Source: a virus
Strand: one strand, 5' to 3'
IMG/VR virus record: IMGVR_UViG_3300024051_000003
Span: 13,120-77,119 of that record
Length of the DNA: 64,000 bases
Position numbers and translations under genes: made by a program. Shown here piece by piece: positions 2,962 to 58,357 of this stretch. The notes under the pieces were generated by a model that saw only the letters and a program-made list of their open reading frames with translations, made no database searches and was not told the DNA's origin. The first letter of the stretch is position 1, and each line of letters begins with the position of its first letter.

Positions 2962-5900
2962 ATGGCGGATGAGTCAGAGTCCCTTGTTCTTGGTGTTGAG
3001 TATGACGGCGAGAGCGGTATTCAGCAGTTTGTTAATGCTTTGGCTCCTTTGCCTGAGCAGGTTGGCAAGGTTATGGACATCCTTGCTCGTGAGGCTACCG
3101 CTAATGGTGGTCAGATTGGTACTGAGCAGGGTAAGGCTATTGCCTCTGCGATGATTCGCGCTTTGCAGGGTGAACTGGCCGGATTGAGTCTATTTACTGG
3201 TACGGGTGGTACTGGGACTGCTCTGGATATGATGGGGATCTCTGAGGAATCCCTGAGTAATACGAAGCTTGGGCTTAAGGATATTCGGCGGATGCTGGAT
3301 GACTTTAAGCGTACTGGTATTGACGGCAAGGGGCCGGAGCAGGCGTCTTTCTCTAAGGCGAACATTCTTGGTCTACGTGACGTCCAATTGTCTGCGAATG
3401 ATGCCACCCAGGCAGAGCAGGAACTGCAGGGGGCGCTGGATCAGACCATTGCCAAATTGAGGCTTATGCGTACTGCGTATGATGCGATCCCTATCACTCG
3501 TAGTGGCAAGTTTGTTTTCTCTACTGGCGACCCTTTGGATTATCAGTTCAATGGTGCGACGATTGGTCTTTCTGATGCTGCGGGCTGGAATCTGAAGCCT
3601 GGCGATCTGATTCGCAATTCTGATGGCCTTGTTGATGTTAAGGCTACCGAGAATAAGATTTTGGATTTGATCGGGAAGAGTTTTGGTCAGATTCAGACGC
3701 AGGAAACGTATCTTCGTGAGCTTTTGGATGCGTTCCGCAAGGCCCCTATACTGTCCCATGATGCCGAGAAGGCTCAGAAGGTTCTGGCTCCACCTCCAGA
3801 AGCAATTCGTAAGGAGGCGGATGCGAAGGTTCGGGCTGAGAATACAGCGTCTCAGGATGTTGCTTCTTTGAAAAAACTGGCGCGTGCTGATGCCGCGAGC
3901 CGCTACAGGGTCGCAGAGTTGACTGCAGGCGACTGGTTCCCGGATATTCAGGCTCGCGCCACTGAATTGAATAATCTGCGGCGCGAGAGGTTGGCACGCC
4001 AGATTGAGGAGGAGAGGGTCAGTCTTAGTCCTCGGATGAGTGACGTTGAGGTTGAGCAGGAGGCTAAGCGGCGTCGCCATGCTGAAGTTGATGCTTCTCG
4101 CAGGGTTGAGGCGTATCAATCTGCCTATGACCTTCGTTCTGGTGTTGTCGAGACGGAGAGGGATAAGTTCGGGAGGACTCTTGCTGAACAGATGCTCGCG
4201 CGCGCTAAAGACGGGTTCATTCCATTCTCCCCTGAGTTTGTTCGACCTCCGACGTTCCGTGAGTCGTTCATGCAGGGTTTTGGCGGGCCACAGGATGCTC
4301 CGTTTGGCCAGATGGTTGGCCAGACCGCTCGCATCTCATTGTTCTATGGTGCCGCGTATCGCGGTTTGGCTTTGGTGCAGGATGCGATGCGTCAGGTCAC
4401 TCAGGAGTCTTTGGACTATCAGGGTGCTTTGACTGACATTTCTGTTGCCACGAACCGCTCTCGTGGTGAGATTACCGGGCTGGCTGAGGGGCTTGGGTCT
4501 ATTGCTGCGTCTGCTGGTTTTTCTGCAGTGCAGGGCGCTCAGGTTGGTGCTCGTAGCGTTGGTTTGTGGGGTTTGGCTGATGCGTCGTTGGCGGATCAGA
4601 CGAATGCTGCTGATATTACGGCTCGCGTTGCTACGCAGGTTGCTCGTGTAACGCCGGGTTCTGATTTGAATGCTGTGGCGACGCAGTTGGTTGGTACTGC
4701 TCGTGCGTTCAACTTGGGTGTTGATCAGTTGACTCGCATTCAGGATTCGTCTATTTTCATTGCCCGTCAGACGGGTCAGGATGCGCAGCCTTTGTTGGGC
4801 GCGACGGCGAATGTTGCGACGCTGGGTACGGCTGCCGGGTTCTCTCTTGAGCAACTGATGGCAATTATTGCTCAGGTTGGTACGACGACCGGGCAGAACC
4901 CTGAGGGTACCGCCGGTCAGTTCCGTCAGGTGCTGTCTCGCGAGTTCACTCCTGTTGCTCGTCGTGCTGAGGATGTTTTTGGCATTGATACGAGTGATCT
5001 TTCGACGGTTGCTCAGGTGTTGGAGCGGGTTGCTTCTGGTCCAATGTCTACGGAGCAGTTGAATCGGTTCTCTACCATTTTTGGTAAGGGTGGTTCGCAG
5101 CAGGTTGCTTTGGTGGCGTTGCAGAACTGGGATCGTATTCAGGGTTTGTCTTCTGGTGCGTCTAACGCTCAGGGCGCTGGCGAGCAGGCCTATAAGGCTG
5201 CGATGAAGGATATTGGACAGCAGTTGAGGGTGATGGGCGCCGAGTGGATGGAACTCGGTTTGATGCTCACTCAGTCTGGGGTATTGGACTGGATTGCGTT
5301 GGCGATTAAGGGTGCTACGTCGGTTGCTGAGGCGTTGCAGCTTGTTGTTGGTGCGTTTAATGAGATCCCTCGCCCTATTCGTTCTGTGGCTGCTGCAGTG
5401 GCTGAGTTTATGCTTGTGTCGCGGTTCTTGCGTTCTGGTATGGGCGCGGGGATGATTGCTTCGCTTGGTGGTGGTGCCGCGCGGACTAATGCCGCTATTC
5501 AGGCTGCTCCGGGTTTTGTTGCTAGGGCTTTTCCGACGTTTGCTGGGGTTGCTGCGCAGGCTCGTGGTGGTTTGAATACTGCGTTTGCGACGGGTGCGTA
5601 TCGCGGTATTAATGCTGTGGTTCCTGCGACTGGCCGGGCGTTTGCTGCGGTGCAGCCAGGGTTGCGTGCTGTTGGTGGCGGCAGTGCGGCAGTTGGCGCT
5701 CTGGGAATTGCTTCTGCAGCGTATATTGTTGGGGATCAACTGGTTAAGTCGTTTGAGCATGCGTCTGCTGGTGCTGATGCGTTTGGTGATGCTGCTCATT
5801 TGGCTGCTGTTGCGGTCAGCCCTGATGACTATCTGGGTGCTGCTCGTGCGGCTCGCATGGGGGCGCAGGAGGCTCGGGATTCTACGCTTTACGGCTTGAA

Positions 5901-19425: not shown

Positions 19426-19920
19426 ATGTCCACCACTGTTGAGAGGATTTCCATGAGGGTTTTCGTGTCGAGCAATTCTGCTCTGTTTGATGCTTACTGT
19501 GAGGGTGAGGAGGTTTACAAGGAGTGGCATACGCGCTTGCAGGGCCGCTTGAGTGCTCTTGGGTTTGCTGCTGGGGAAGTTGTCCCTGTGTTTGCTCGTC
19601 GTGGCGTAGAGCGGGTTCTGCTGGGTTTTTCGGCTACGTTCACGGATTTGACGCAGCACGGTTTTCAGCCGGTGCCGGATTGGAATGATGTGCATACTCC
19701 TGTGCCGCATTCTTTAGCTGATGGGCTACTGGGTAGCTTAGGCCCGATCCCCGAGGATTCTTTGGTGTTGGTCGAGCGTTTTGGGATGCCTGCATCCGCG
19801 AAGATCGGGCCTCGTCGCATGACTTCTCCAGAGGTTTCCGTTGAGGGCGACAGGGTTGTCGTCTGCTGGCATCATGATGTGGAGATTTCCTTCGATGAAG
19901 CCGTGTGGTCTGAGCGATGA
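19426..19920 (+). CDS. hypothetical protein
   Basis: 164-aa ORF with ATGA overlap into the primase gene. Confidence 0.55.
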   Translation: MSTTVERISMRVFVSSNSALFDAYCEGEEVYKEWHTRLQGRLSALGFAAGEVVPVFARRGVERVLLGFSATFTDLTQHGFQPVPDWNDVHTPVPHSLADGLLGSLGPIPEDSLVLVERFGMPASAKIGPRRMTSPEVSVEGDRVVVCWHHDVEISFDEAVWSER

Positions 19921-22286
19921 ACTTAAGCGTTGAGGAGTATCTGGTCTCTAAGGGGTTGCGCCCTGTCCGCGCTGGTAACAATCAGCTCCTTGTGCATTGC
20001 ATGTTCCACGATGATTCGAAGCATTCTCGCGGGAAGATGTACATTAATGCCGAGCATGGCGCCTACCAGTGCAAGGTGTGCCTGTCTGAGGGCGGCTTCT
20101 ATTCCCTGATGAAGCATTACGGGGATGAGAAGGAGCAGCGGGTTAACGCTGACGTTATTGAGCGTTCCATGCGCGCCGAGATTCTTACTGACTACGTGAA
20201 TCATTGCCATGATGTTCTTGTCTCTGGTGAGAATCAGTCCATCCTTGATTATCTGATTGATCGTGGCATTAGCCTTGATTTGGTGGAGCGTTACAAGATC
20301 GGCTTCCATGCTTCTGGCGACAATGTTGAGGCGTTACACAAGTATGGCCGGGAGAAGGTGGAAGCCACTGGCCTGCTGTATAGCGGCGGCAGGTGGGCGC
20401 TCGCGGGGCAGATTACCATCCCGTACATATCTAATGGTCGGGTTTTGATGGTGCGCGGCAAGGATATTGCTGGTAAGTACAAGACTCTCATGGGCGATCA
20501 GCCTCGGCTTTTTAATGGTGATGGCCTGAAGGAAGCGGATATGGCCCTGATTTGCGAGGGGGAGTTTGACACTCTCGTGTTGCAGGAACTGTTGAAGACG
20601 AGCCCGGACGCGAGCCTGCGCAATATTGCCGTGGTGGGCGTTGCGGGGACTGGAGCACTGCCTGAGGGTAAGGACTTTCCGAAGTATTTTGAGGGGTTCC
20701 GTCGCGTCTATCTGGGGTTTGATGCAGATAATGCGGGTCGGAAGGGCGCGGCTGCGTTGCATGAATTGATGCCAGCGCAGTCGAAGACGCTGGAGATCCC
20801 CGAGCAGGGTGCTGACTGGACTGACTGGTTGATTGCGCGCAGCACGAACGGTGAATACGGGAAGACCTGGAAGGACGTTCAGGCTCTCATCCAGGAGGCT
20901 GAGGATCGTGATAAGCGTGTATTCTCGGTGTCTGATGCGGTGCGGGCGTATGAGGAGGAAGAGGCGACGGGTGTTGGCTTGCGTCTTGGCTTCCCGTCGT
21001 TGGATGGGTATTTTCCGAAGGGTTTTCGTCGCGGTAATTTGATTGTTCCGCTGGCTGGAACAGGTGTCGGTAAGGCTTTGGCTGCTGATACTCCTATTCT
21101 TACTCCTGCAGGGTGGACGACTCAGGGCAGATTGAGGCCGTGGGATTACGTGTTTGGCCCGGATGGTAAGCCTGTGAAGGTTATCGGCGTGACTCCTCTG
21201 CAGCATGGTCGCCCTTGCTATAGGGTTACTTTTGGCGGTCAGTCAGTTGTTGCTGATGAACTTCACGAGTGGACTGTGGAGGACTTCCAGGGTGGCACTG
21301 CAACTGTTGAGACTCGTGACCTTGTGAATATGGTTGGCAAGGTTTTCATACCGGGAAAGTATGACTCTCAGCTTTTGCGGAAGGGCGCCCGGTATAAGAG
21401 TGGTGGTAGTCGCATTCTCCATAGAGTGGAGCAGGTGGAGAGTGTTCCGGTTCTTTGCATCCAGGTTGACCGCGAGGATGGGCTGTATCTTGCAGGCAAG
21501 GGCCTCCTGCAGACGCACAATTCGCTTTTCGTCCAGAACATCATGTGGAACACGCGCGGCGTGCGTACTTTGGCCATCACCCCAGAGCTTACTCGTGCAG
21601 AGGTATGGGGGCGCCTGCGTAAGATCGGTCGTTTCCACATGCCATGGGTAGAGTCCGATCAAGAGTTGGCCAATGAACTCCCGAACCTATCCATCGTGGA
21701 GGAGAATAAGGTTCGCCCTCAGGATGTTCGGATGTTCATTGAGGAGTATGCGGAGCGGCATGGTGGTACCCCTGATGTCATCCATTTGGACTATCTGGGG
21801 TATATGGCCCGTCACGCTCAGGGGCAATCTGAGTATGACAGGATCACGAACGCCACAATGGACCTTAAGGCGCTCGCAAAGGAGTATGAGGCTGTTATAT
21901 TCGCCCCGCACCAAGTGAACCGTTCTGGTGGCGTTGGGGAGGCCCCTGAGGCCGATAAGGGCCGTGGCGCTGGAACCGTGGAAGAGACGGCTGATGTTCT
22001 GCTCGGTTTGTGGACTCCGTGGCAGAAGGAGTCTGGTGGCCGCGTCGGGGACGAGTTCATGGTTCGCATCTTGAAGTCTCGTCAGGGTAACCGTGGCCGC
22101 GAGGCCCAACTTTTGATTTCCGCTATGAGCCTTGTCGTGTCAGATCCGGTGATTCCGGGTCATAAGGTCAAGGTGAATAGTGAGAATGAGCAGTGGAATA
22201 TGGGTCGTCCATATGATTCATATTGGGACACTGTTCATCGGACGGCGATTGCCGCCCGGTCGGTTCAGGGTGAGATGCCCTTCTAG
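19917..22286 (+). CDS. DNA primase-helicase (CHC2 zinc finger, TOPRIM, DnaB-like SF4 helicase), intein-containing
   Basis: 'HCMFHDD...CKVC'; TOPRIM 'ICEGEFD','GFDADNAG'; Walker A GTGVGK|S split by the intein; 'HLDYL', 'PHQVNR', 'EETAD', 'LKSRQG'. Confidence 0.9.
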   Translation: MNLSVEEYLVSKGLRPVRAGNNQLLVHCMFHDDSKHSRGKMYINAEHGAYQCKVCLSEGGFYSLMKHYGDEKEQRVNADVIERSMRAEILTDYVNHCHDVLVSGENQSILDYLIDRGISLDLVERYKIGFHASGDNVEALHKYGREKVEATGLLYSGGRWALAGQITIPYISNGRVLMVRGKDIAGKYKTLMGDQPRLFNGDGLKEADMALICEGEFDTLVLQELLKTSPDASLRNIAVVGVAGTGALPEGKDFPKYFEGFRRVYLGFDADNAGRKGAAALHELMPAQSKTLEIPEQGADWTDWLIARSTNGEYGKTWKDVQALIQEAEDRDKRVFSVSDAVRAYEEEEATGVGLRLGFPSLDGYFPKGFRRGNLIVPLAGTGVGKALAADTPILTPAGWTTQGRLRPWDYVFGPDGKPVKVIGVTPLQHGRPCYRVTFGGQSVVADELHEWTVEDFQGGTATVETRDLVNMVGKVFIPGKYDSQLLRKGARYKSGGSRILHRVEQVESVPVLCIQVDREDGLYLAGKGLLQTHNSLFVQNIMWNTRGVRTLAITPELTRAEVWGRLRKIGRFHMPWVESDQELANELPNLSIVEENKVRPQDVRMFIEEYAERHGGTPDVIHLDYLGYMARHAQGQSEYDRITNATMDLKALAKEYEAVIFAPHQVNRSGGVGEAPEADKGRGAGTVEETADVLLGLWTPWQKESGGRVGDEFMVRILKSRQGNRGREAQLLISAMSLVVSDPVIPGHKVKVNSENEQWNMGRPYDSYWDTVHRTAIAARSVQGEMPF
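21075..21521 (+). mobile_element. class-3 mini-intein (149 aa) in the helicase P-loop
   Basis: starts at Ala (ALAADTPILT), block B 'ADELHEW', block F 'VLCIQVD', ends THN before Ser+1; no endonuclease domain. Confidence 0.92.
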
Positions 22287-28360: not shown

Positions 28361-28407
28361 ACAAAAAAAGGGCCCCCTCCACCATTTCTGGTGGAGGGGG
28401 CTTTGTG
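28361..28407. terminator. bidirectional terminator at the convergence of the two arms
   Basis: A-tract, gccccctccacca/tggtggagggggc, T-tract. Confidence 0.85.
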
Positions 28408-29178: not shown

Positions 29179-29364
29179 TTAACCTCGGATGAGGGCCACG
29201 TCTGTTGGGTTCAGTTTTTCCTTGATTGCTTTGACCGGTTGGGATGCGCAGTTGTGGCAGATGACGAAGCGTACGTTTTCCACGTTGAGCATCCGCCATT
29301 CGGCGTCTTCCGGTGAGCCTTGGTCGTGGCACACTTGGCAAGTGTAGATGAGGTTGGACGTCAC
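29179..29364 (-). CDS. small zinc-binding protein
   Basis: CQVC...CHNC; GTGA overlap. Confidence 0.5.
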   Translation of the reverse strand: MTSNLIYTCQVCHDQGSPEDAEWRMLNVENVRFVICHNCASQPVKAIKEKLNPTDVALIRG

Positions 29365-29846
29365 TGCTCGTCCCTCCAGGGTGCCATCCAGAACTTGAAT
29401 CCGTAGTCTCTCAGTGTCCATTCGGTGCCGCAGAGCGGGCATTGCCAGATGGTTCCCTCGTGATGTTCGTCCGGGTCTGGCCGGCAGTCTTTGCAGTCAG
29501 ACCGTCGGCACGCGTCTTCTGGGGGTGGTGGCGGTGCGCTGTAGATGATTCCGCCGGACGTGAAGACCTTCCCGCCTTCCTGGGTTTTCTTGTCTTTGTT
29601 TCCCTCGGGTTTGCTCTCTTCTGGCGGTGTGACCCCCAGTGCTTCCGCGATCTTGGGGTGCAGGTGTCCGTGCTCTCCGAATAGGGTTCTTGTGCCTTCT
29701 GAACTAAACTCTCCCCCCACTGTGGATCCTTGCCACAGCCTGATGAGGTTTGCTATGCGTTGCTGCTCAGCGAGTTCGAGGGTGGCGCATGCTTGAGTGA
29801 GCAGAGCACTTTCAATGTGCCTGAAGGTTTCTCGTTTGTTGTTCAT
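29361..29846 (-). CDS. hypothetical protein (ATLELAEQQRIAN motif plus Cys cluster)
   Basis: motif shared with 50417-50734. Confidence 0.55.
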   Translation of the reverse strand: MNNKRETFRHIESALLTQACATLELAEQQRIANLIRLWQGSTVGGEFSSEGTRTLFGEHGHLHPKIAEALGVTPPEESKPEGNKDKKTQEGGKVFTSGGIIYSAPPPPPEDACRRSDCKDCRPDPDEHHEGTIWQCPLCGTEWTLRDYGFKFWMAPWRDEQ

Positions 29847-29850
29847 GCTG

Positions 29851-30072
29851 TCACCGCCCTTCTAGGGCATCCATGAGGTTGACCCACTCTTCGTCGCTCA
29901 TGACGCGCCAACCAATGTTGTCAGATATGGCGGATGCGAATGCAATGAGGCGTTTTCCGCAGACGTCGCATTTCCAGACTGTCCCTCTGGGGACTTCGTT
30001 CCTGTCGGGCACGTCTTCGCACATGACTCCCGGCTGCGTACAGATTGGGAGGTGGATGATTTTTCCGGGCAT
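29851..30072 (-). CDS. small zinc-ribbon protein
   Basis: TAATG overlap; 'GTVWKCDVCG'. Confidence 0.5.
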   Translation of the reverse strand: MPGKIIHLPICTQPGVMCEDVPDRNEVPRGTVWKCDVCGKRLIAFASAISDNIGWRVMSDEEWVNLMDALEGR

Positions 30073-30323
30073 TAGTTGTCTCCTGGGTGGCCGAGCGCGG
30101 TGAGCGCCCGTGAGATGAGGATCCACATTCCGTCCTCGTGCACGTGGTCTACGAGGGCTTCTTGATGGGTTTCTGTGCCGTTCACGATTTCGGTGAGTCG
30201 AGCCCGGTACTTGTGGGAGTGCTCTTGGCCTTTGAGTGGTTCCAGGCGCCCTATGGTGAGCTCTCCGGTTCGCGCTAGGCCACCGCTGGTGGTTGTGATG
30301 TTCACCGAGATGACGAGCGCCAT
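30072..30323 (-). CDS. hypothetical protein
   Basis: TAATG-coupled ORF. Confidence 0.55.
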   Translation of the reverse strand: MALVISVNITTTSGGLARTGELTIGRLEPLKGQEHSHKYRARLTEIVNGTETHQEALVDHVHEDGMWILISRALTALGHPGDN

Positions 30324-30595
30324 TAGAACTCCTCTTGGAAGCGCTCGGCAGGCTTCCGTAGGTCGTCACTTTCGGGGAACATGACGTCCGTTGCGGGGGC
30401 GATGGTGAACTCTGATATGCCCCGGCCTGATTCGTGCGAGGAGCATGGGTTCAGGGAGACCTCTCCGTACTGGTGGGAGATTTGCCGCAGCTCCCCTTGG
30501 ATTCGCATGAGTACACCACTGCGGTCTTCGGTGGTGAACTCCACGAGGGCCCCGATGTGACCGTAGTTCAGTTGTGCTGCGTTGGTTTTGTTCAT
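30323..30595 (-). CDS. hypothetical protein
   Basis: ATGA-coupled ORF. Confidence 0.55.
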   Translation of the reverse strand: MNKTNAAQLNYGHIGALVEFTTEDRSGVLMRIQGELRQISHQYGEVSLNPCSSHESGRGISEFTIAPATDVMFPESDDLRKPAERFQEEF

Positions 30596-30750
30596 GATTC
30601 TTCCGCTTTCTTCTCGTGTTCGTATGCTGCCATTTCAGCGGATCCATCTTGGATTCTCCAGAAGTCCTCCCAACCGCAGGAGCATGTTGCGAGGGCGCCA
30701 AAGGCGTCTTCCATTTGCTCTGCTCGGGTGGTTGTTTTGTGTTCTTTCAT
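30592..30750 (-). CDS. small hypothetical protein
   Basis: RBS gaggag; MKEHKTTT...CSCGW. Confidence 0.5.
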   Translation of the reverse strand: MKEHKTTTRAEQMEDAFGALATCSCGWEDFWRIQDGSAEMAAYEHEKKAEES

Positions 30751-31139
30751 GACTCTCCTCGGCGGGCCCGTAGGGCCTGCAGGTGCTCTTGGAAGTTTGC
30801 TTCCAGCTCTTCCATGGTGCGCCGTTCCCTTACCATGTCCCAGTGGGTTTTGAGGTCGCGGAGTTTCTTGTCCTGCTCCGCCTCCACCGAGTCTTGCTCG
30901 AACTCTGGGTCGAGGGGTGATGAGGTGAAGCAGTTGGGGCATTCTGTTGTTTGTGGGATAGCGTGGGCTATCCATGCTTCTTCAGCGTATTCCGCGTAGA
31001 AGTCACCGTCATTTGGGCAGGTGTAGATTGCGATGCGCCGTTCAGCTGGTGTGGCAGAGTATTCTGTTTCGTCTGCGTTGGGGAGGAATCCGCCTCCGAG
31101 GTTGTAGCCGATGACTCTTGACGTGCGGTTGGTTGCCAT
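30747..31139 (-). CDS. rbpA: RNA polymerase-binding protein RbpA homolog
   Basis: C-terminal 'KTHWDMVRERRTMEELEANFQEHLQALRARR' matches the RbpA sigma-interaction domain (RTHWDMLLERRSIEELEELL.ERL..R.RR); core 'IYTCPN...F...IPQTTECPNC'; basic linker. Confidence 0.85.
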   Translation of the reverse strand: MATNRTSRVIGYNLGGGFLPNADETEYSATPAERRIAIYTCPNDGDFYAEYAEEAWIAHAIPQTTECPNCFTSSPLDPEFEQDSVEAEQDKKLRDLKTHWDMVRERRTMEELEANFQEHLQALRARRGES

Positions 31140-31278
31140 TTTTGGCCCTTCTTTAGTGTGATGTCCACGGGGTTTTTGATTGCTCGTGCTGGGATGATAA
31201 TGCGTGTCCCGAGGGGGATTTCTTTCATGGTGTCTACGGGGCGCCCGGGGATTGGTTTGCTGGCGCCGTATTTGTACC

Positions 31279-32313
31279 TCATACTGCCTCCGTGAGTGCT
31301 TCTACGCGCTCTTGCCCGGCGAGGGTGAGTGTGCGCCCTTGTGGGGTTAACGCGATGAATCCCTTGTTGAGGAGGAGCTTTTCTGTGTGGCGTGGAGTGG
31401 TGGTCTCTCCGAGCACTGCCGCGATGGCTTTTTCTCCGGCAGGTTTACCTTCGAATGAGGTTGCTAGTGACAGTAGGTAGCGTTTCGCGAGGTCATCGAG
31501 GCCGTCTGGGGTGAGGTCCATGAAGTCGCACACTTCATCGAGGTCGTAGTTCCCGTTTGGGTCGTGTGGGATGACCTGGGCGAGTAGGAGGTCTCGTAGG
31601 TTGCGTAGCACTTGCCCGATTGCTCGGGGGTTGCTGTTGGACATGACTGCGATGCGTTCGAGTGCAGCATCGGACGGGGTTGCGAGCTGGTGCTTCCCGA
31701 GGGTTCCTGCTGCGGTACGTCGTGCGATCTCCATGGCTTCAGTGTTGGAGTATTCGTCCATGGGTGGGCGTAGCGGGAAGCGTGATGTGATGGTCTCAGG
31801 GAGTTTCTGGACGTCTGTGGTGGCGCCGATGATGGTGACGTTGGGCAGGACGGTTGTTCCGGCTGCTCCGATGATCACGCCGTCTTGCAGGTAGGATAGG
31901 AGCCATTCTGCCTTGGTCTTGCCGCCAGAAATTGCCTGGTGGCATTCGTCCCAAAATAGGACGTCACCATCTTCCATGGTTTTGAGGATGCGGATCGCTT
32001 GTGCCTCGTCAATGGCACCTTGGACTTCTACCAGTCCGGCGTTCATTTCTTTCGCGATGAGGCGCACGATGGCTGTTTTGCCGATGCCGTGGCCTCCTGC
32101 TGCGATGAGCATGTGGTCGAGGCGTTCGTTGCGGGCTCGTGCGGATGCTGCTGCGATCTTGACGAGTCGGACGGCTTTGGTTTGGCCGACGTAGTTGTCC
32201 CATGTGCGTGGGTATGAGGTGCCTTCGAAGAGGGCGGGGCCGCGTAGGACGGTGGTTCCTGAGAGTCGTTGTGCGGCGCGGTAGATGAGTCGTTGTGTTT
32301 GTAGGCTTGTCAT
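31279..32313 (-). CDS. ruvB: RuvB-like Holliday junction branch-migration ATPase
   Basis: 'PRTWDNYVGQ', 'LDHMLI..G.GIGKT', 'GDVLFWDECH', 'IGATT', 'SRF', 'NPR', 'DGLD', 'TPQGRTLT', all collinear with RuvB. Confidence 0.88.
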   Translation of the reverse strand: MTSLQTQRLIYRAAQRLSGTTVLRGPALFEGTSYPRTWDNYVGQTKAVRLVKIAAASARARNERLDHMLIAAGGHGIGKTAIVRLIAKEMNAGLVEVQGAIDEAQAIRILKTMEDGDVLFWDECHQAISGGKTKAEWLLSYLQDGVIIGAAGTTVLPNVTIIGATTDVQKLPETITSRFPLRPPMDEYSNTEAMEIARRTAAGTLGKHQLATPSDAALERIAVMSNSNPRAIGQVLRNLRDLLLAQVIPHDPNGNYDLDEVCDFMDLTPDGLDDLAKRYLLSLATSFEGKPAGEKAIAAVLGETTTPRHTEKLLLNKGFIALTPQGRTLTLAGQERVEALTEAV

Positions 32314-33224
32314 TTGTTGTCCTTCAGTGCGGCTCGCACGGATGCTTCTGCGTGGTCGAGCCATGGTCGTGGGGTGGTCTTGTTGATTGCTTGGTCCAGC
32401 TCGTTGTGGATTGCGGTGAGCTTGAGCCATTGTTTGGCTACTGGCCTAGATGTTTTGCGTTCTGCTTCTTTTGCGAGTAGTCGTTCGGCGATGGTGAGCG
32501 GGCCGAGGATGGTTCGTTCTATGACTTCTGTAGCATTGTCGAGGTCGTAGAGGAACAGTTCCACCCCTCTCTCTTTTAAGGGCTCCACGGCGGCCTCTAG
32601 GGCCTTTTGTGAGGACAGCGGGGCTATGCGCGGCAGGGTAGCCGCAGCGGACGGTACGACACCCATCGTTGTCATGATCTTGGTCAGGTAGGCGCGGCGC
32701 TGCGTGTCACTAAGAACACCACTGCGGCTCTCTTCGTATCGTTCAGCGATCTCTGCAATGTAGTTGGATATGAGTTCCCATTCTTGGATGTGAATGTGCG
32801 GGAGTGTCTTGGGGTCTTGTACGAACGTTCGAATACGAGCGCTGTCTAGATCCTTGCGAATGACGTCGCCCTTCTGTTTGCGGATGGGCTTATGCAGGAC
32901 GACCTTGCCGACAACGTTGCTGGTTACTTTGTCTTCTCGTGAAGCCCGTGGTGTGGCTTCACGGATGATGGCGAACGTTACGGTGTGCTTTGCCGCCTGA
33001 TTGATGCGGCGCGCCTTGATTTCCACGTCGTGCGTGTCAGCGACCTGCCATTTAGAGTGGGCCTTCACCCGCTTAATGACGCCAGCAAACATGACCTCTA
33101 GGCTGATCTGCCGGGCCCGCAGGATGAGGAGCGGGTCAATATTGAGGTCTTCGACGATCTCTCGAATGTCATCTTCTGAGAGGTCTTGCGTGGGGTTGAT
33201 GTACACCCCGAGCGCTTGAGCCAT
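32310..33224 (-). CDS. hypothetical protein, third gene of the MoxR-vWA cluster
   Basis: 304 aa, RBS ggagg, coupled to ruvB by ATGA. Confidence 0.6.
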   Translation of the reverse strand: MAQALGVYINPTQDLSEDDIREIVEDLNIDPLLILRARQISLEVMFAGVIKRVKAHSKWQVADTHDVEIKARRINQAAKHTVTFAIIREATPRASREDKVTSNVVGKVVLHKPIRKQKGDVIRKDLDSARIRTFVQDPKTLPHIHIQEWELISNYIAEIAERYEESRSGVLSDTQRRAYLTKIMTTMGVVPSAAATLPRIAPLSSQKALEAAVEPLKERGVELFLYDLDNATEVIERTILGPLTIAERLLAKEAERKTSRPVAKQWLKLTAIHNELDQAINKTTPRPWLDHAEASVRAALKDNK

Positions 33225-33232
33225 GATGCCTC

Positions 33233-34336
33233 CTAGTAGTAGACGGTGGAGTCTGCGAGCTGGTTGATGTTGGTTGATGAGTGGGCCGACCGTTCAGGCA
33301 TGGCTGCTGTGACGGGGGTGTGTAGGCGCATCGCTGACCATGTGGCGTCGTTGTAGTCGTAGATGGTTTCATCTCCGAAGAGAACTACATGGTCTTTCTC
33401 GGTGGCGAGTGTTGCGGCGACGTCTAATGCTTTTTGGATTTCACTGGTTCCTCGGTGGCGTCGGGTTGTGAACTTGATGAGGTTCTCTGGGTGGCCAAGG
33501 TCGAATATTTCCGTGTGGTTCCCGGCGAACGTTATGACCCGGCAGGATTGTTTGCGCGCCTTGGCTACCTCGTTGAGCGCGAGGATGACCCCTTTGGCTT
33601 GAACGACTTTCTCGTCTGTCATGGATGATGATTCGTCAAGGATGACCATGAATCCACCCTGCTCGTCCATCTTCTTGCCGGTGGCCCGGTAGTTCTCGAT
33701 GCGGGATTCGCTGTATCGCTTCCAGAACGTTGGGTCAATGGCTGGTGAGGCCATTTTGATGAGTTCGCTTACTGGCATGTGGATGAGGTCGTTGCCTTCG
33801 GCCAGGTAGGTGCGCTCCTGCTTGTGTGCGACTTCGCGTGCCGCCTTGATTAACTGCGGAGCTTTCAAACTGTTTGCTAACTGGATGGCGCTCTTTGATG
33901 TAGAGATGCGCAGCATCAATTTCATGGATTCTTCGTCGTCAAGTTGGTCGAGCCACCATGACAGTCCCAGAGATGAGATGATCTTGGATGCTGTGACGAG
34001 TGTTGTGGCTGTCGCATGCAGTGCGTCCGAGGTGACTTTCTCATCTATTTGAAATGTGTTTGATTCGTTACCGAATCGCGCCATGAACACGTTTGTTGCG
34101 TGTAGTGAGTAGGGGCGGTGTAGTTCGGTGAGTTTCTTGATGAGCCCGAAATGTTCATGTTCCAACAGTCCGGCGATGATGTGCCGGTATTCGAGGGCTT
34201 CAGGGGTGACGACATCGGTGAACTCTGGGTTGATCGTGTAGAACACTGCGAACACGTCACGATGGAATGGCGTCCAGTTGTAACCCTCTGGGTCTGGGTT
34301 GAGGTGTTGGGTTTGTTTAATGTTGAAAGCGTCCAT
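33233..34336 (-). CDS. von Willebrand factor A (MIDAS) domain protein, ViaA-like
   Basis: 'MVILDESSSM' (DxSxS), 'RGTS', 'VLFGD'; adjacent to the MoxR ATPase. Confidence 0.8.
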   Translation of the reverse strand: MDAFNIKQTQHLNPDPEGYNWTPFHRDVFAVFYTINPEFTDVVTPEALEYRHIIAGLLEHEHFGLIKKLTELHRPYSLHATNVFMARFGNESNTFQIDEKVTSDALHATATTLVTASKIISSLGLSWWLDQLDDEESMKLMLRISTSKSAIQLANSLKAPQLIKAAREVAHKQERTYLAEGNDLIHMPVSELIKMASPAIDPTFWKRYSESRIENYRATGKKMDEQGGFMVILDESSSMTDEKVVQAKGVILALNEVAKARKQSCRVITFAGNHTEIFDLGHPENLIKFTTRRHRGTSEIQKALDVAATLATEKDHVVLFGDETIYDYNDATWSAMRLHTPVTAAMPERSAHSSTNINQLADSTVYY

Positions 34337-34344
34337 GATGCTCC

Positions 34345-35283
34345 TTAGAGAAGTGGGTGCCGAACAGGGTTCTCTATCTGGGAGATAGCCTGCTTGACTC
34401 GGTCCTGTATGGATCCGGTGAGCGGATTATGCTTTGGTGCATTAAGCGCCGCTTCCGCGATCACTCGTGCAACATCCTGTCCGTCACTTGCAGGCTCCCA
34501 CATGGTGTACATGAGTGCTGCAAGATGGTTGGCGGTGATCATTCGGTCTCCGTCGAGCCATGCTTTTGCTTGGAGTACGGGGATGGTGTGCATCCAGCGT
34601 CGGTCGCTACGCCCCGGGAGGTCTTTACGAAGCTCATCTAGTGTAATGAGCACAGCATCTGTGACAGTGACGGCAGAGGCCCCTTCTCGGGCCGCTATGA
34701 CGTCCTGGGGAGACACGGGGGCTACCGTGGTGTCATCGGCTTGCCAGATGGCTAGCAGGCTCTCTACGGGCTTTACGTGAACTCTGAGCAGGAGGCGATC
34801 CCATAGCGCTGCGGAGTCCTCTGACGCGAGCGGCTCATTTGATGTACACACTGCCATCTCCAACGGGATGGGATGCTCGCTGCGACCGTCATTTACCTCG
34901 ATCTTCAGTCGCTCATTCAGTGCGGCCAGCAGATCGTGGCCCACGGCAGGGTTGATCTTGCCAATCTCGTCCAGCATGACCCAGTTCGCTGTCGTGAGGT
35001 AGCCGTCATCCCTGCGTAGAAATTTGGACCGCTGGAGCTCCTCGATGTCATACGGGCCAAGGATGGCTTCTGGTGGGCGAGTGGTGGACAGTGCAGCCGT
35101 GAACGTTCGGCCCGGGAGGGCTTCCAGTGCTGTGCGTGCAAGACTGGATTTCGCCGTCCCGGGAACCCCGTGCAGGTAGACATGCTGGCGGGTGATGACG
35201 CCGAGAATGATTGCTTCGATGGCGTCGCGTCGTTGTGGATATTTTCGGTTGAGTTGATCTTGCAGTGTTCGTAGCGCATTCAC
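34345..35283 (-). CDS. MoxR-family AAA+ ATPase (RavA-like)
   Basis: 'LHGVPGTAKS', 'PPEAILGP', 'MLDEIGK...LLAALNER', 'TSNE', 'ALWDRLLLR'. Confidence 0.88.
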   Translation of the reverse strand: MNALRTLQDQLNRKYPQRRDAIEAIILGVITRQHVYLHGVPGTAKSSLARTALEALPGRTFTAALSTTRPPEAILGPYDIEELQRSKFLRRDDGYLTTANWVMLDEIGKINPAVGHDLLAALNERLKIEVNDGRSEHPIPLEMAVCTSNEPLASEDSAALWDRLLLRVHVKPVESLLAIWQADDTTVAPVSPQDVIAAREGASAVTVTDAVLITLDELRKDLPGRSDRRWMHTIPVLQAKAWLDGDRMITANHLAALMYTMWEPASDGQDVARVIAEAALNAPKHNPLTGSIQDRVKQAISQIENPVRHPLL

Positions 35284-38304: not shown

Positions 38305-38335
38305 ACTATAAACACGTGAACCTACATACTGTCAA
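38305..38335 (-). promoter_or_regulatory. sigmaA-type promoter for the Ku operon (TTGACA-N19-TATAGT)
   Basis: consensus -35 and near-consensus -10 on the minus strand, long spacer. Confidence 0.6.
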
Positions 38336-57434: not shown

Positions 57435-57611
57435 ATGAAGGAAGAGCCTAGGGTCATCTTTTCGGTGGGCCCGTTATATGCGGGGGTGGCGGTTGATGCG
57501 CGGCGTCTACGCCATGGCTTGGTTGAAGTGTCGCGGAAACTATATGTGGGTTGGGGGTTTCGGTTGTGGATTTTTCCTCTGAGGTTTCACCGTCGCGGGA
57601 TCGAGGCGTAA
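57435..57611 (+). CDS. small hypothetical protein
   Basis: TAATG-coupled to the sigma gene. Confidence 0.4.
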   Translation: MKEEPRVIFSVGPLYAGVAVDARRLRHGLVEVSRKLYVGWGFRLWIFPLRFHRRGIEA

Positions 57612-58357
57612 TGCTCTCGAAGGAGGAGCAGGCAGAGTTGTGGGGTCGGGTCGCGGATGGCGACCAGAGGGCCATTGTGGAGCTTGTGGAGGCATATCAG
57701 CCGTTGGCTCACGCTATCGCCCGTAAGCAGAACATTCCAGCTCATGTAGACCGTGAGGATTTAACGTCTAATGCGATGCTTGGATTGTTCCAGGCGGTCA
57801 CTCGCTTTGACCCTACGAAGTCTGACGGTAATTATGCGAGCCATTTTGCCAGCTTTGCCCGTCAGCGCATATCCGGTCAGGTCCTGGATTACATTAAGTC
57901 AAATGAGGTTACTTGGGCTCCTCGTGGCGCTTGGAAGGCAATGAAGGCCCGCCATGCTGCGGAGGAGGAGTTGGAGCAGTCGTTGGGGCATAAGCCTAAC
58001 GAGCACGAGATAGCAGCCCATATGGGTGTGAATGTTAAGGATCTCCCGCGCATTGCGATCCAGGTCCCTATGGCTCCGGCTATCTCGTCAGATGATGATG
58101 GAAAGAGCCTGGATACCTTCTCTGACTCGGAGCACGTCGGCAGCACGGTTGAGTTGGATTCGCTCGGAGATTCTCTTGCTCAGGCGATATGTAGGCTCCC
58201 TGTGGAGGATCAGGAACTCCTTTCTGTTTTCATTACTAGAAACGTCCCGGCTCTGCGTCGCCCTCCGCATGGCTACACGCAGGAGATGTTCGATGGCGCA
58301 CTGCTCTCTCTTATGCGTGAACTCAGGGTAGAGTCGATTTCGTCAGCAAGGAGGTGA
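57611..58357 (+). CDS. sigma70-family RNA polymerase sigma factor (FliA/WhiG-like), eroded region 4
   Basis: region 2 'DREDL...MLGLFQAVTRFDP...FASFARQRISGQVLDYIK', region 3 'LEQSLGHKPNEHEIAAHMGV', region 4 start 'LAQAICRLP' then no HTH. Confidence 0.85.
   Translation: MLSKEEQAELWGRVADGDQRAIVELVEAYQPLAHAIARKQNIPAHVDREDLTSNAMLGLFQAVTRFDPTKSDGNYASHFASFARQRISGQVLDYIKSNEVTWAPRGAWKAMKARHAAEEELEQSLGHKPNEHEIAAHMGVNVKDLPRIAIQVPMAPAISSDDDGKSLDTFSDSEHVGSTVELDSLGDSLAQAICRLPVEDQELLSVFITRNVPALRRPPHGYTQEMFDGALLSLMRELRVESISSARR

Follow-up and report, generated by a model that had tools for sequence, protein, structure and literature searches.

A virus record from IMG/VR carries a gene for a protein of the RbpA family, and this protein is altered at positions that are fixed in cells. 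An RbpA-family factor that resides in phages and is changed at such positions is new. In cells, RbpA is an essential protein that assists the housekeeping sigma factor, and it influences how drugs such as fidaxomicin and rifampicin affect RNA polymerase. We propose that the phage protein, like RbpA, probably docks on the sigmaA of the host and that phage transcription benefits from this.

The gene was found in a window of 64,000 nucleotides, which is the whole stretch of DNA that was analysed. The window corresponds to bases 13120-77119 of a 92,758-bp virus record, which CheckV rates as 100% complete. Its gene content includes a primase/helicase, a DNA methylase, collagen-like tail fibre genes, an amidase lysin and a sigma factor. 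The sole sequencing run found with the sequence is a DNA run labelled ant metagenome, which may be the source of the assembly.

Results

The phage gene encodes a member of the RbpA family

The gene and its ribosome-binding site are located as follows.

30747-31139, minus strand: rbpA-like gene for protein P0001, 130 aa plus TGA stop, ATG start (ORF list and translation)
31146-31151, minus strand: Shine-Dalgarno sequence GAAGGG, 6 nt 5' of the rbpA ATG (from the sequence)

The original prediction had read this ORF as RbpA from an N-terminal tail, a Cys-containing core, the linker KKLRDLK and the segment that follows it. All these features are present in the translation, with Cys41, Cys67 and Cys70 in the core, the linker at residues 91-97 and THWDMVRERRTMEELE at residues 98-113. 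When P0001 was compared with Pfam, the RbpA profile PF13397 scored 65 bits (E 1.1e-17) against a gathering score of 25. The match spans residues 24-124 of P0001 and positions 14-105 of the 105 profile positions, and it was the single RbpA match when the whole record was searched with PF13397. PHROGs and NCBIfam gave no usable match for P0001. A phmmer search of all PDB chains returned RbpA chains exclusively, from M. tuberculosis, M. smegmatis and Streptomyces, with E values of 1e-9 to 2e-7. The best sequence match was M. tuberculosis 6bzo_J (E 1.3e-9), and others were 5tw1_J, 8hvr_G and 8dy7_G.

The structure of P0001 was modelled by AlphaFold2 with 54 homologues (mean pLDDT 80.8). The model consists of a disordered N-tail, a beta core, a basic linker and a two-helix sigma-interaction domain (SID). 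In a Foldseek search of the PDB, the top 21 matches to the model were all RbpA chains, and the core superimposed on the S. coelicolor core domain 2m6o with a TM score of 0.69 and an rmsd of 1.7 Å. Whole-chain TM scores were low because the domains are flexibly linked. The profile search, the PDB sequence matches and the fold matches agree with the predicted RbpA identity, and the family assignment is secure.

Domains and residues of the phage protein

The domains of P0001 are encoded as listed below.

31050-31139, minus strand: N-terminal tail, residues 1-30, disordered in the model (pLDDT 51-57) and without secondary structure
30909-31049, minus strand: core domain, residues 31-77, with four beta strands (34-41, 45-52, 64-66 and 73-76), pLDDT >90
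30870-30908, minus strand: extra acidic helix and linker, residues 78-90, with the helix at 78-87 in the model; mostly an insertion relative to cellular RbpA
30846-30869, minus strand: basic linker KKLRDLKT, residues 91-98, by phmmer alignment to 6bzo_J
30750-30845, minus strand: SID, residues 99-130, with helices 99-106 and 109-129 (pLDDT >90), H99-W-D-M and E105-R106-R107

In alignments, the tail sequence R5-x-x-R8-V-I-G11-x-x-L14-G15 resembles the cellular motif R-x-L-R-G-x-R-L-G with two small insertions. The equivalent stretch in the RbpA of a sister phage, known from a metagenomic contig (L006), is VRVTGQGLGG.

The three core cysteines are of the zinc-ribbon type and stand in conserved columns, and the usual His is replaced by Gly45. 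A four-residue insertion, W56-I-A-H59 (residues 56-59), is common to P0001 and the L006 protein. The zinc-binding cysteines are essential in S. coelicolor RbpA, and His-to-Ala mutants still complement (PMC3675491). A C(H/C)CC zinc ribbon is found in all actinobacteria except the Corynebacterium-Mycobacterium-Nocardia group (PMC3675491). Since P0001 keeps the three zinc-ribbon cysteines, it is by sequence an RbpA of the zinc type, with a putative zinc site. This hints weakly at an origin, and perhaps a host, outside the mycolic-acid group. The emphasis on mycobacteria in the original prediction is not supported: P0001 has these cysteines, which the Corynebacterium-Mycobacterium-Nocardia group lacks (PMC3675491).

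S. coelicolor RbpA (SCO1421; 2m6o, 8hvr_G), which contains zinc, has the same four-part layout as the phage protein. Its Cys35, Cys56 and Cys59 match C41, C67 and C70, and the ERR motif and the HWDM helix are the same. However, its ligand His38 corresponds to Gly45, and Streptomyces RbpA chains are only 32-33% identical to the phage protein. The latter also has the additional four-residue core insertion, the acidic helix before the linker and the tail insertions, and it is encoded by a phage and not by a chromosome. The RbpA of M. tuberculosis and M. smegmatis (Rv2050; 6bzo_J, 5tw1_J, 4x8k_B) is the best sequence match among solved structures. In contrast to the phage protein, which has all three cysteines, mycobacterial RbpA is zinc-free and lacks two of the three. 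M. tuberculosis K76, R79 and W54 are R, K and T in the phage protein.

Residues 78-90 lie between the core and the basic linker. Alignment columns 77-82 are gapped in 95-100% of 80 cellular RbpAs and occupied in the L006 protein. The basic linker was modelled with lower confidence than the core or the SID. M. tuberculosis K73, K74, K76 and R79 correspond to phage K91, K92, R94 and K97, so a positive charge is present at all four positions. RbpA K74, K76 and R79 contact promoter DNA, and K76 and R79 were termed "absolutely conserved" (PMC5302886). The R79A mutant loses activation and can repress (PMC5302886); changes at these positions therefore matter. A fragment of the basic linker and SID (BL-SID) activates by itself in vitro (PMC5302886).

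The ERR motif of the SID is intact. R106 and R107 are the only invariant columns across the 54 homologues, and the ERR arginines of S. coelicolor (R89/R90) are required for sigma binding and activity (PMC3675491).

The SID is conserved and the rest of the protein is diverged

We compared the identity of each phage domain to 80 cellular orthologues with the cell-cell identity in the same columns.

N-terminal tail: phage vs cells 24%, cells vs cells 59%
Core: phage vs cells 31%, cells vs cells 51%
Pre-linker: phage vs cells 5%, cells vs cells 40%
Basic linker: phage vs cells 31%, cells vs cells 71%
SID: phage vs cells 55%, cells vs cells 67%

The claim that the tail and core are highly diverged and that the SID is kept was thus confirmed (24% and 31% against 55%). 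Positions that are invariant in the 80 cellular proteins were also altered in the phage. In M. tuberculosis numbering, K76 is R94, R79 is K97, L85 is V103 and W54 is T65, and an invariant Gly is F71.

A phmmer search of 1.84 billion representative proteins gave 76 matches at E <=1e-3, of which the best other than P0001 itself had an E value of 1.7e-8 and 39% identity. A word-indexed search of 5.8 billion proteins returned P0001 itself alone. When 185,579 species genomes were scanned, at least 446 RbpA genes were found. The best 80 of these come from records labelled Actinomycetota or from MAGs, and their identity to the phage protein is 46% or less. In a maximum-likelihood tree, cellular RbpAs track taxonomy on short branches (median 0.12). 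The phage RbpA stands on a branch of 1.33, is placed without support and is nested in no host family.

The modelled SID is compatible with the known sigmaA interface

Cellular RbpA uses domain 2 of sigma factors as its binding site, in group 1 and in part of group 2, and it stimulates open-complex formation by the sigmaA holoenzyme. A complex was modelled from P0001 residues 86-130 and a stretch of a Mycobacterium sigmaA that reaches from region 1.2 to 2.4 (residues 168-326). The binding to sigma region 2 that had been predicted was supported in silico with this mycobacterial sigma: the complex scored an ipSAE of 0.80, compared with 0.01 for the best control (partner pLDDT 85). In the calibration of the method, 51 of the 78 solved complexes reached this mark, as did 2 of the 108 mismatched pairs. 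At least 97% of the contacts were the same in the three runs. Because RbpA-sigmaA complexes have already been solved, the pass may partly be model memory of these structures.

The predicted contacts on sigmaA are at residues 203-214 (end of region 1.2 and start of the NCR), 232-244 (NCR) and 281-288 (region 2.3). These correspond to the three parts of sigma to which the RbpA SID is reported to bind (PMC7403470), and docking on them is predicted as in the solved mycobacterial complexes (PMC7403470). The model shows that the phage SID would be compatible with the known sigmaA interface.

The phage also encodes a sigma factor of its own.

57551-58357, plus strand: phage sigma factor, 268 aa, TTG start, group-3-like; Pfam Sigma70_r2 and r3 only, PHROG 351

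This is the only sigma in the genome, and Pfam finds no region 4 in it. It aligns to sigmaA from region 2.2 onward only, with 26% identity, and has no alignable counterpart of the region 1.2 and NCR patches, two of the three contact patches. In two-hybrid tests, RbpA binds no group 3 or group 4 sigmas (PMC3675491, PMC7403470). Taken together, the lack of these patches and the failure of RbpA to bind such sigmas favour the host principal sigma as the target.

rbpA lies in a predicted leftward transcription unit

Signals and small ORFs around rbpA are as follows.

38305-38335, minus strand: candidate sigmaA-type promoter TTGACA-N19-TATAGT, a consensus match, heading the leftward unit that contains rbpA
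30968-31282, minus strand: upstream small ORF of 104 codons, whose start overlaps the RuvB stop and which runs 172 nt into rbpA in another frame
30592-30750, minus strand: downstream 52-aa ORF without Pfam match, whose ATG overlaps the rbpA TGA (ATGA, 30747-30750)
28372-28401, minus strand: strong intrinsic-terminator-like hairpin (13 bp, 10 of them GC, with a T-run), closing the leftward unit (terminator scan)

In the promoter candidate, TTGACA is perfect and TATAGT is near-consensus. A 19-nt spacer is unusually long for a sigma-70-type promoter. In the co-oriented leftward run, rbpA follows a ligase, MoxR, vWA, a 304-aa protein without family match, a RuvB-like ATPase and the small ORF. The module of MoxR AAA+ ATPase, vWA, ~300-aa protein and RuvB-like protein (31279-35283, minus strand) lies directly upstream of rbpA and is kept in L006 (212-4289, plus strand).

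The ATGA overlap of rbpA with the 52-aa ORF suggests translational coupling. The upstream small ORF is 40% identical over 57 aa to its counterpart in L006 by tblastn, and its conservation is restricted to the first ~57 residues. The L006 small ORF (4348-4605, plus strand) has the same arrangement, with a 76-nt overlap with rbpA. The upstream small ORF could be an overlapping gene in its own right, or it could serve to couple translation. The codons of its conserved "KKGxKW" lie over the rbpA ribosome-binding site and start codon.

On the 3' side of rbpA, five small ORFs (29361-30750, minus strand) have no Pfam match and no counterpart in L006. Two of them (29361-29846 and 29851-30069, minus strand) encode paired CxxC motifs of the zinc-ribbon type.

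How the phage protein might act

We assume that the phage relies on host RNA polymerase. A search of the phage for a T7-type RNA polymerase gave no match, but the search controls gave none either. The leftward operon with rbpA is probably read by the host sigmaA holoenzyme. As modelled, the C-terminal two-helix SID would dock on domain 2 of the host principal sigma (region 1.2, NCR and region 2.3), and the phage protein would either replace host RbpA at its site or add to it. Its altered tail and core and its extra acidic helix may change the behaviour of the holoenzyme in favour of phage promoters. We infer activation rather than inhibition, and likewise any promoter preference. That the host already makes its own RbpA counts against the need for a phage copy.

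The protein has features of both kinds. The tail motif, the structural cysteines and every linker charge are retained, which points to an active factor. Substitutions at cell-invariant positions, an acidic helix adjoining the basic linker and fast divergence point to an altered or antagonistic one. Since the core and the tail are far diverged, the activity could be altered or reversed.

One specific form of this proposal is possible, and we put it forward tentatively. The phage protein may be a specificity-switching cofactor that out-competes host RbpA. By means of its remodelled tail, core and acidic helix, it might redirect the holoenzyme to phage promoters of unusual geometry, such as the 19-nt-spaced candidate at the head of the rbpA operon, or it might disable sigmaA for the benefit of the RbpA-independent phage sigma. 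If true, no earlier member of the RbpA class of general transcription factors would have been encoded by a virus, and the phage may be among several phage lineages that took up this factor and remodelled it.

It is unlikely, but worth weighing, that the protein is instead a decoy or competitive inhibitor. Here the conserved SID would bind host sigmaA and displace host RbpA, and the altered parts would fail in open-complex formation. Host sigmaA transcription would be damped and core RNA polymerase would be freed for the RbpA-independent sigma of the phage. The pattern of divergence suits this, as the SID is conserved and the NTT, core and linker are far more diverged than among cells. The substituted cell-invariant positions include R79 and K76, and RbpA with the R79A change no longer activates and, with CarD, acts as a repressor (PMC5302886). 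A single group-3-like phage sigma should not need RbpA. Phage factors that displace SigA/RbpA also exist, for example D29 gp53 (bioRxiv 10.64898/2026.10.05.756390). However, R79K and K76R keep the positive charge, so contacts to the DNA backbone may persist. The tail motif and the three cysteines are kept, which would be superfluous for a pure SID decoy, and BL-SID alone activates in vitro (PMC5302886). The rbpA operon itself also appears to depend on a sigmaA-type promoter candidate.

D29 gp53 (bioRxiv 10.64898/2026.10.05.756390) and phiEco32 gp79 (PMC12276001) are examples of small phage proteins that act on initiation by host RNA polymerase during takeover, and the phage RbpA resembles them in this. 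They are phage inventions or sigma mimics that displace host sigma. In contrast, the phage RbpA is a homologue of a general initiation cofactor of the host and is predicted to bind sigma rather than replace it. Homology of the phage RbpA to gp53 or gp79 is not expected.

A dedicated partnership with the phage's own sigma, which the original prediction had also offered, is very improbable. The phage RbpA would bind region 2 of that sigma and supply upstream DNA contacts, and so make up at phage late promoters for a region 4 that is weak or absent. Both genes are in one genome, Pfam finds regions 2 and 3 and no region 4 in the phage sigma, and RbpA helps most at promoters without a -35 element (PMC5302886). 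However, the group-3-like sigma appears from alignment to be without the region 1.2/NCR patches that carry most of the predicted SID contacts, and RbpA fails to bind group 3/4 sigmas in two-hybrid tests (PMC3675491, PMC7403470). In the genome, 26 kb separate the two genes, which are on opposite strands.

RbpA-like docking on host sigmaA, with benefit to phage transcription, is the reading that we prefer. The phage copy is a natural RbpA variant in which the sigma-binding helices are constant and cell-invariant residues are changed. It could reveal the parts of RbpA that determine promoter choice, and it could be a tool to probe or perturb sigmaA-RbpA function. To our knowledge, little has been learned about transcription takeover by actinobacterial phages, and the phage RbpA could show how such phages use the host holoenzyme. 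Resistance-gene pipelines list RbpA as a rifamycin-resistance determinant (PMC9846536, PMC12403132). Because of this listing, phage rbpA genes will be marked, without evidence, as resistance genes carried by phages.

rbpA is a long-maintained phage gene

The G+C content of rbpA is that of its flanks, 0.56-0.57. The closest relative of P0001 found, P0002, is encoded on L006, a 12.9-kb metagenomic phage contig on which the order MoxR, vWA, 301-aa protein, RuvB, small ORF and RbpA is as in the window. The RuvB of the window is 62% identical to that of L006, and the corresponding values are 56% for MoxR, 65% for the methylase, 63% for the primase but only 36% for RbpA. Two diverged phages with an intact rbpA in the same place indicate long maintenance, which argues against contamination or recent capture. 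rbpA is a genuine phage-borne and long-maintained gene.

That rbpA is a passenger with no part in infection, whether a host gene captured recently or bacterial DNA joined on by an assembly error, would agree with RbpA being otherwise a cellular gene and with the only other phage-database match sitting on cellular-looking DNA, but this idea is hardly credible and already largely refuted by the G+C match to the flanks (0.56-0.57), the overlap of its stop and start codons with those of phage neighbours, the intact gene in the same place in a related phage at just 36% identity, the nearest of 1.84 billion representative proteins at 39% identity, and the tree, where the gene nests within no host family.

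Other phage-like RbpA copies

RbpA has been described as exclusive to Actinobacteria (PMC5121209). The phage RbpA on the virus record is an exception to this Actinobacteria-restricted cellular distribution, which is a distribution trait and leaves family membership unaffected. We found no account of a phage-encoded homologue in full-text literature on RbpA with phage, actinobacteriophage or prophage. Its mentions there are of two kinds: surveys of phages or viromes label it a resistance gene, or it is the host factor that D29 gp53 displaces.

Pattern scans of the IMG/VR records other than that of the window, made with the single protein, with alignment A1 and with alignment A2 (canonical RbpA first), returned no RbpA. 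A tblastn search of INPHARED found no real phage RbpA; its single match was MT835496. We rejected MT835496.1 as a phage RbpA, since it is a canonical RbpA in a very G+C-rich locus with glycosyltransferase- and phosphodiesterase-like genes, in an UNVERIFIED record. The record is a 159-kb "UNVERIFIED Bacteriophage sp." from human faeces, in which the cellular-type RbpA lies among housekeeping-like genes, with a glycerophosphodiester phosphodiesterase-like and a glycosyltransferase-like ORF. The region concerned (64589-76861) is probably bacterial DNA.

Diverged Pfam-RbpA proteins were found on phage-like metagenomic contigs: P0003 (L003, L004), P0007 (L005), P0020 (L092, L093) and P0055 (L095, L096). 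These contigs have dense, co-oriented and mostly unannotated genes with a helicase, primase or methylase of phage type, and the gene context suggests that they are viral. An N6/N4 methylase, YdjM and an actin-like PilM/FtsA-type protein are also among their gene content. P0002, P0003, P0007, P0020 and P0055 are 31-38% identical to P0001. Like P0001, several of the phage-like copies have R79K and a tail without the Arg of "LRG".

The tree did not support a single clade of phage-borne RbpAs. Of the six, four group loosely on long branches together with cellular sequences, P0057 (next to secG-opcA) and P0075 (next to a response regulator). This mixture makes long-branch attraction likely. Carriage of RbpA by phages is probably recurrent but rare.

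Hints of the host

We found no tRNAs in the phage genome, no close relative of the phage lysin in named genomes, and no close relatives of the phage RuvB, primase or sigma among cultured phages. The maximum-likelihood tree of RbpA gave no supported host clade. The phage showed no match to a cutinase/LysB-type gene, and no WhiB or CarD was found in it. The zinc-type RbpA and the absence of cutinase/LysB, WhiB and CarD matches are weak hints of the host.

An insertion in the primase/helicase

The primase/helicase gene (19917-22286, plus strand) has an inserted segment of ~100 residues at about residues 360-490. The insert matches PHROG "terminase large subunit" families and more than 150 mycobacteriophage records annotated as terminase, exonuclease or HNH. 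Judged by these matches, it looks like an intein or a homing-endonuclease module common to actinobacteriophages.
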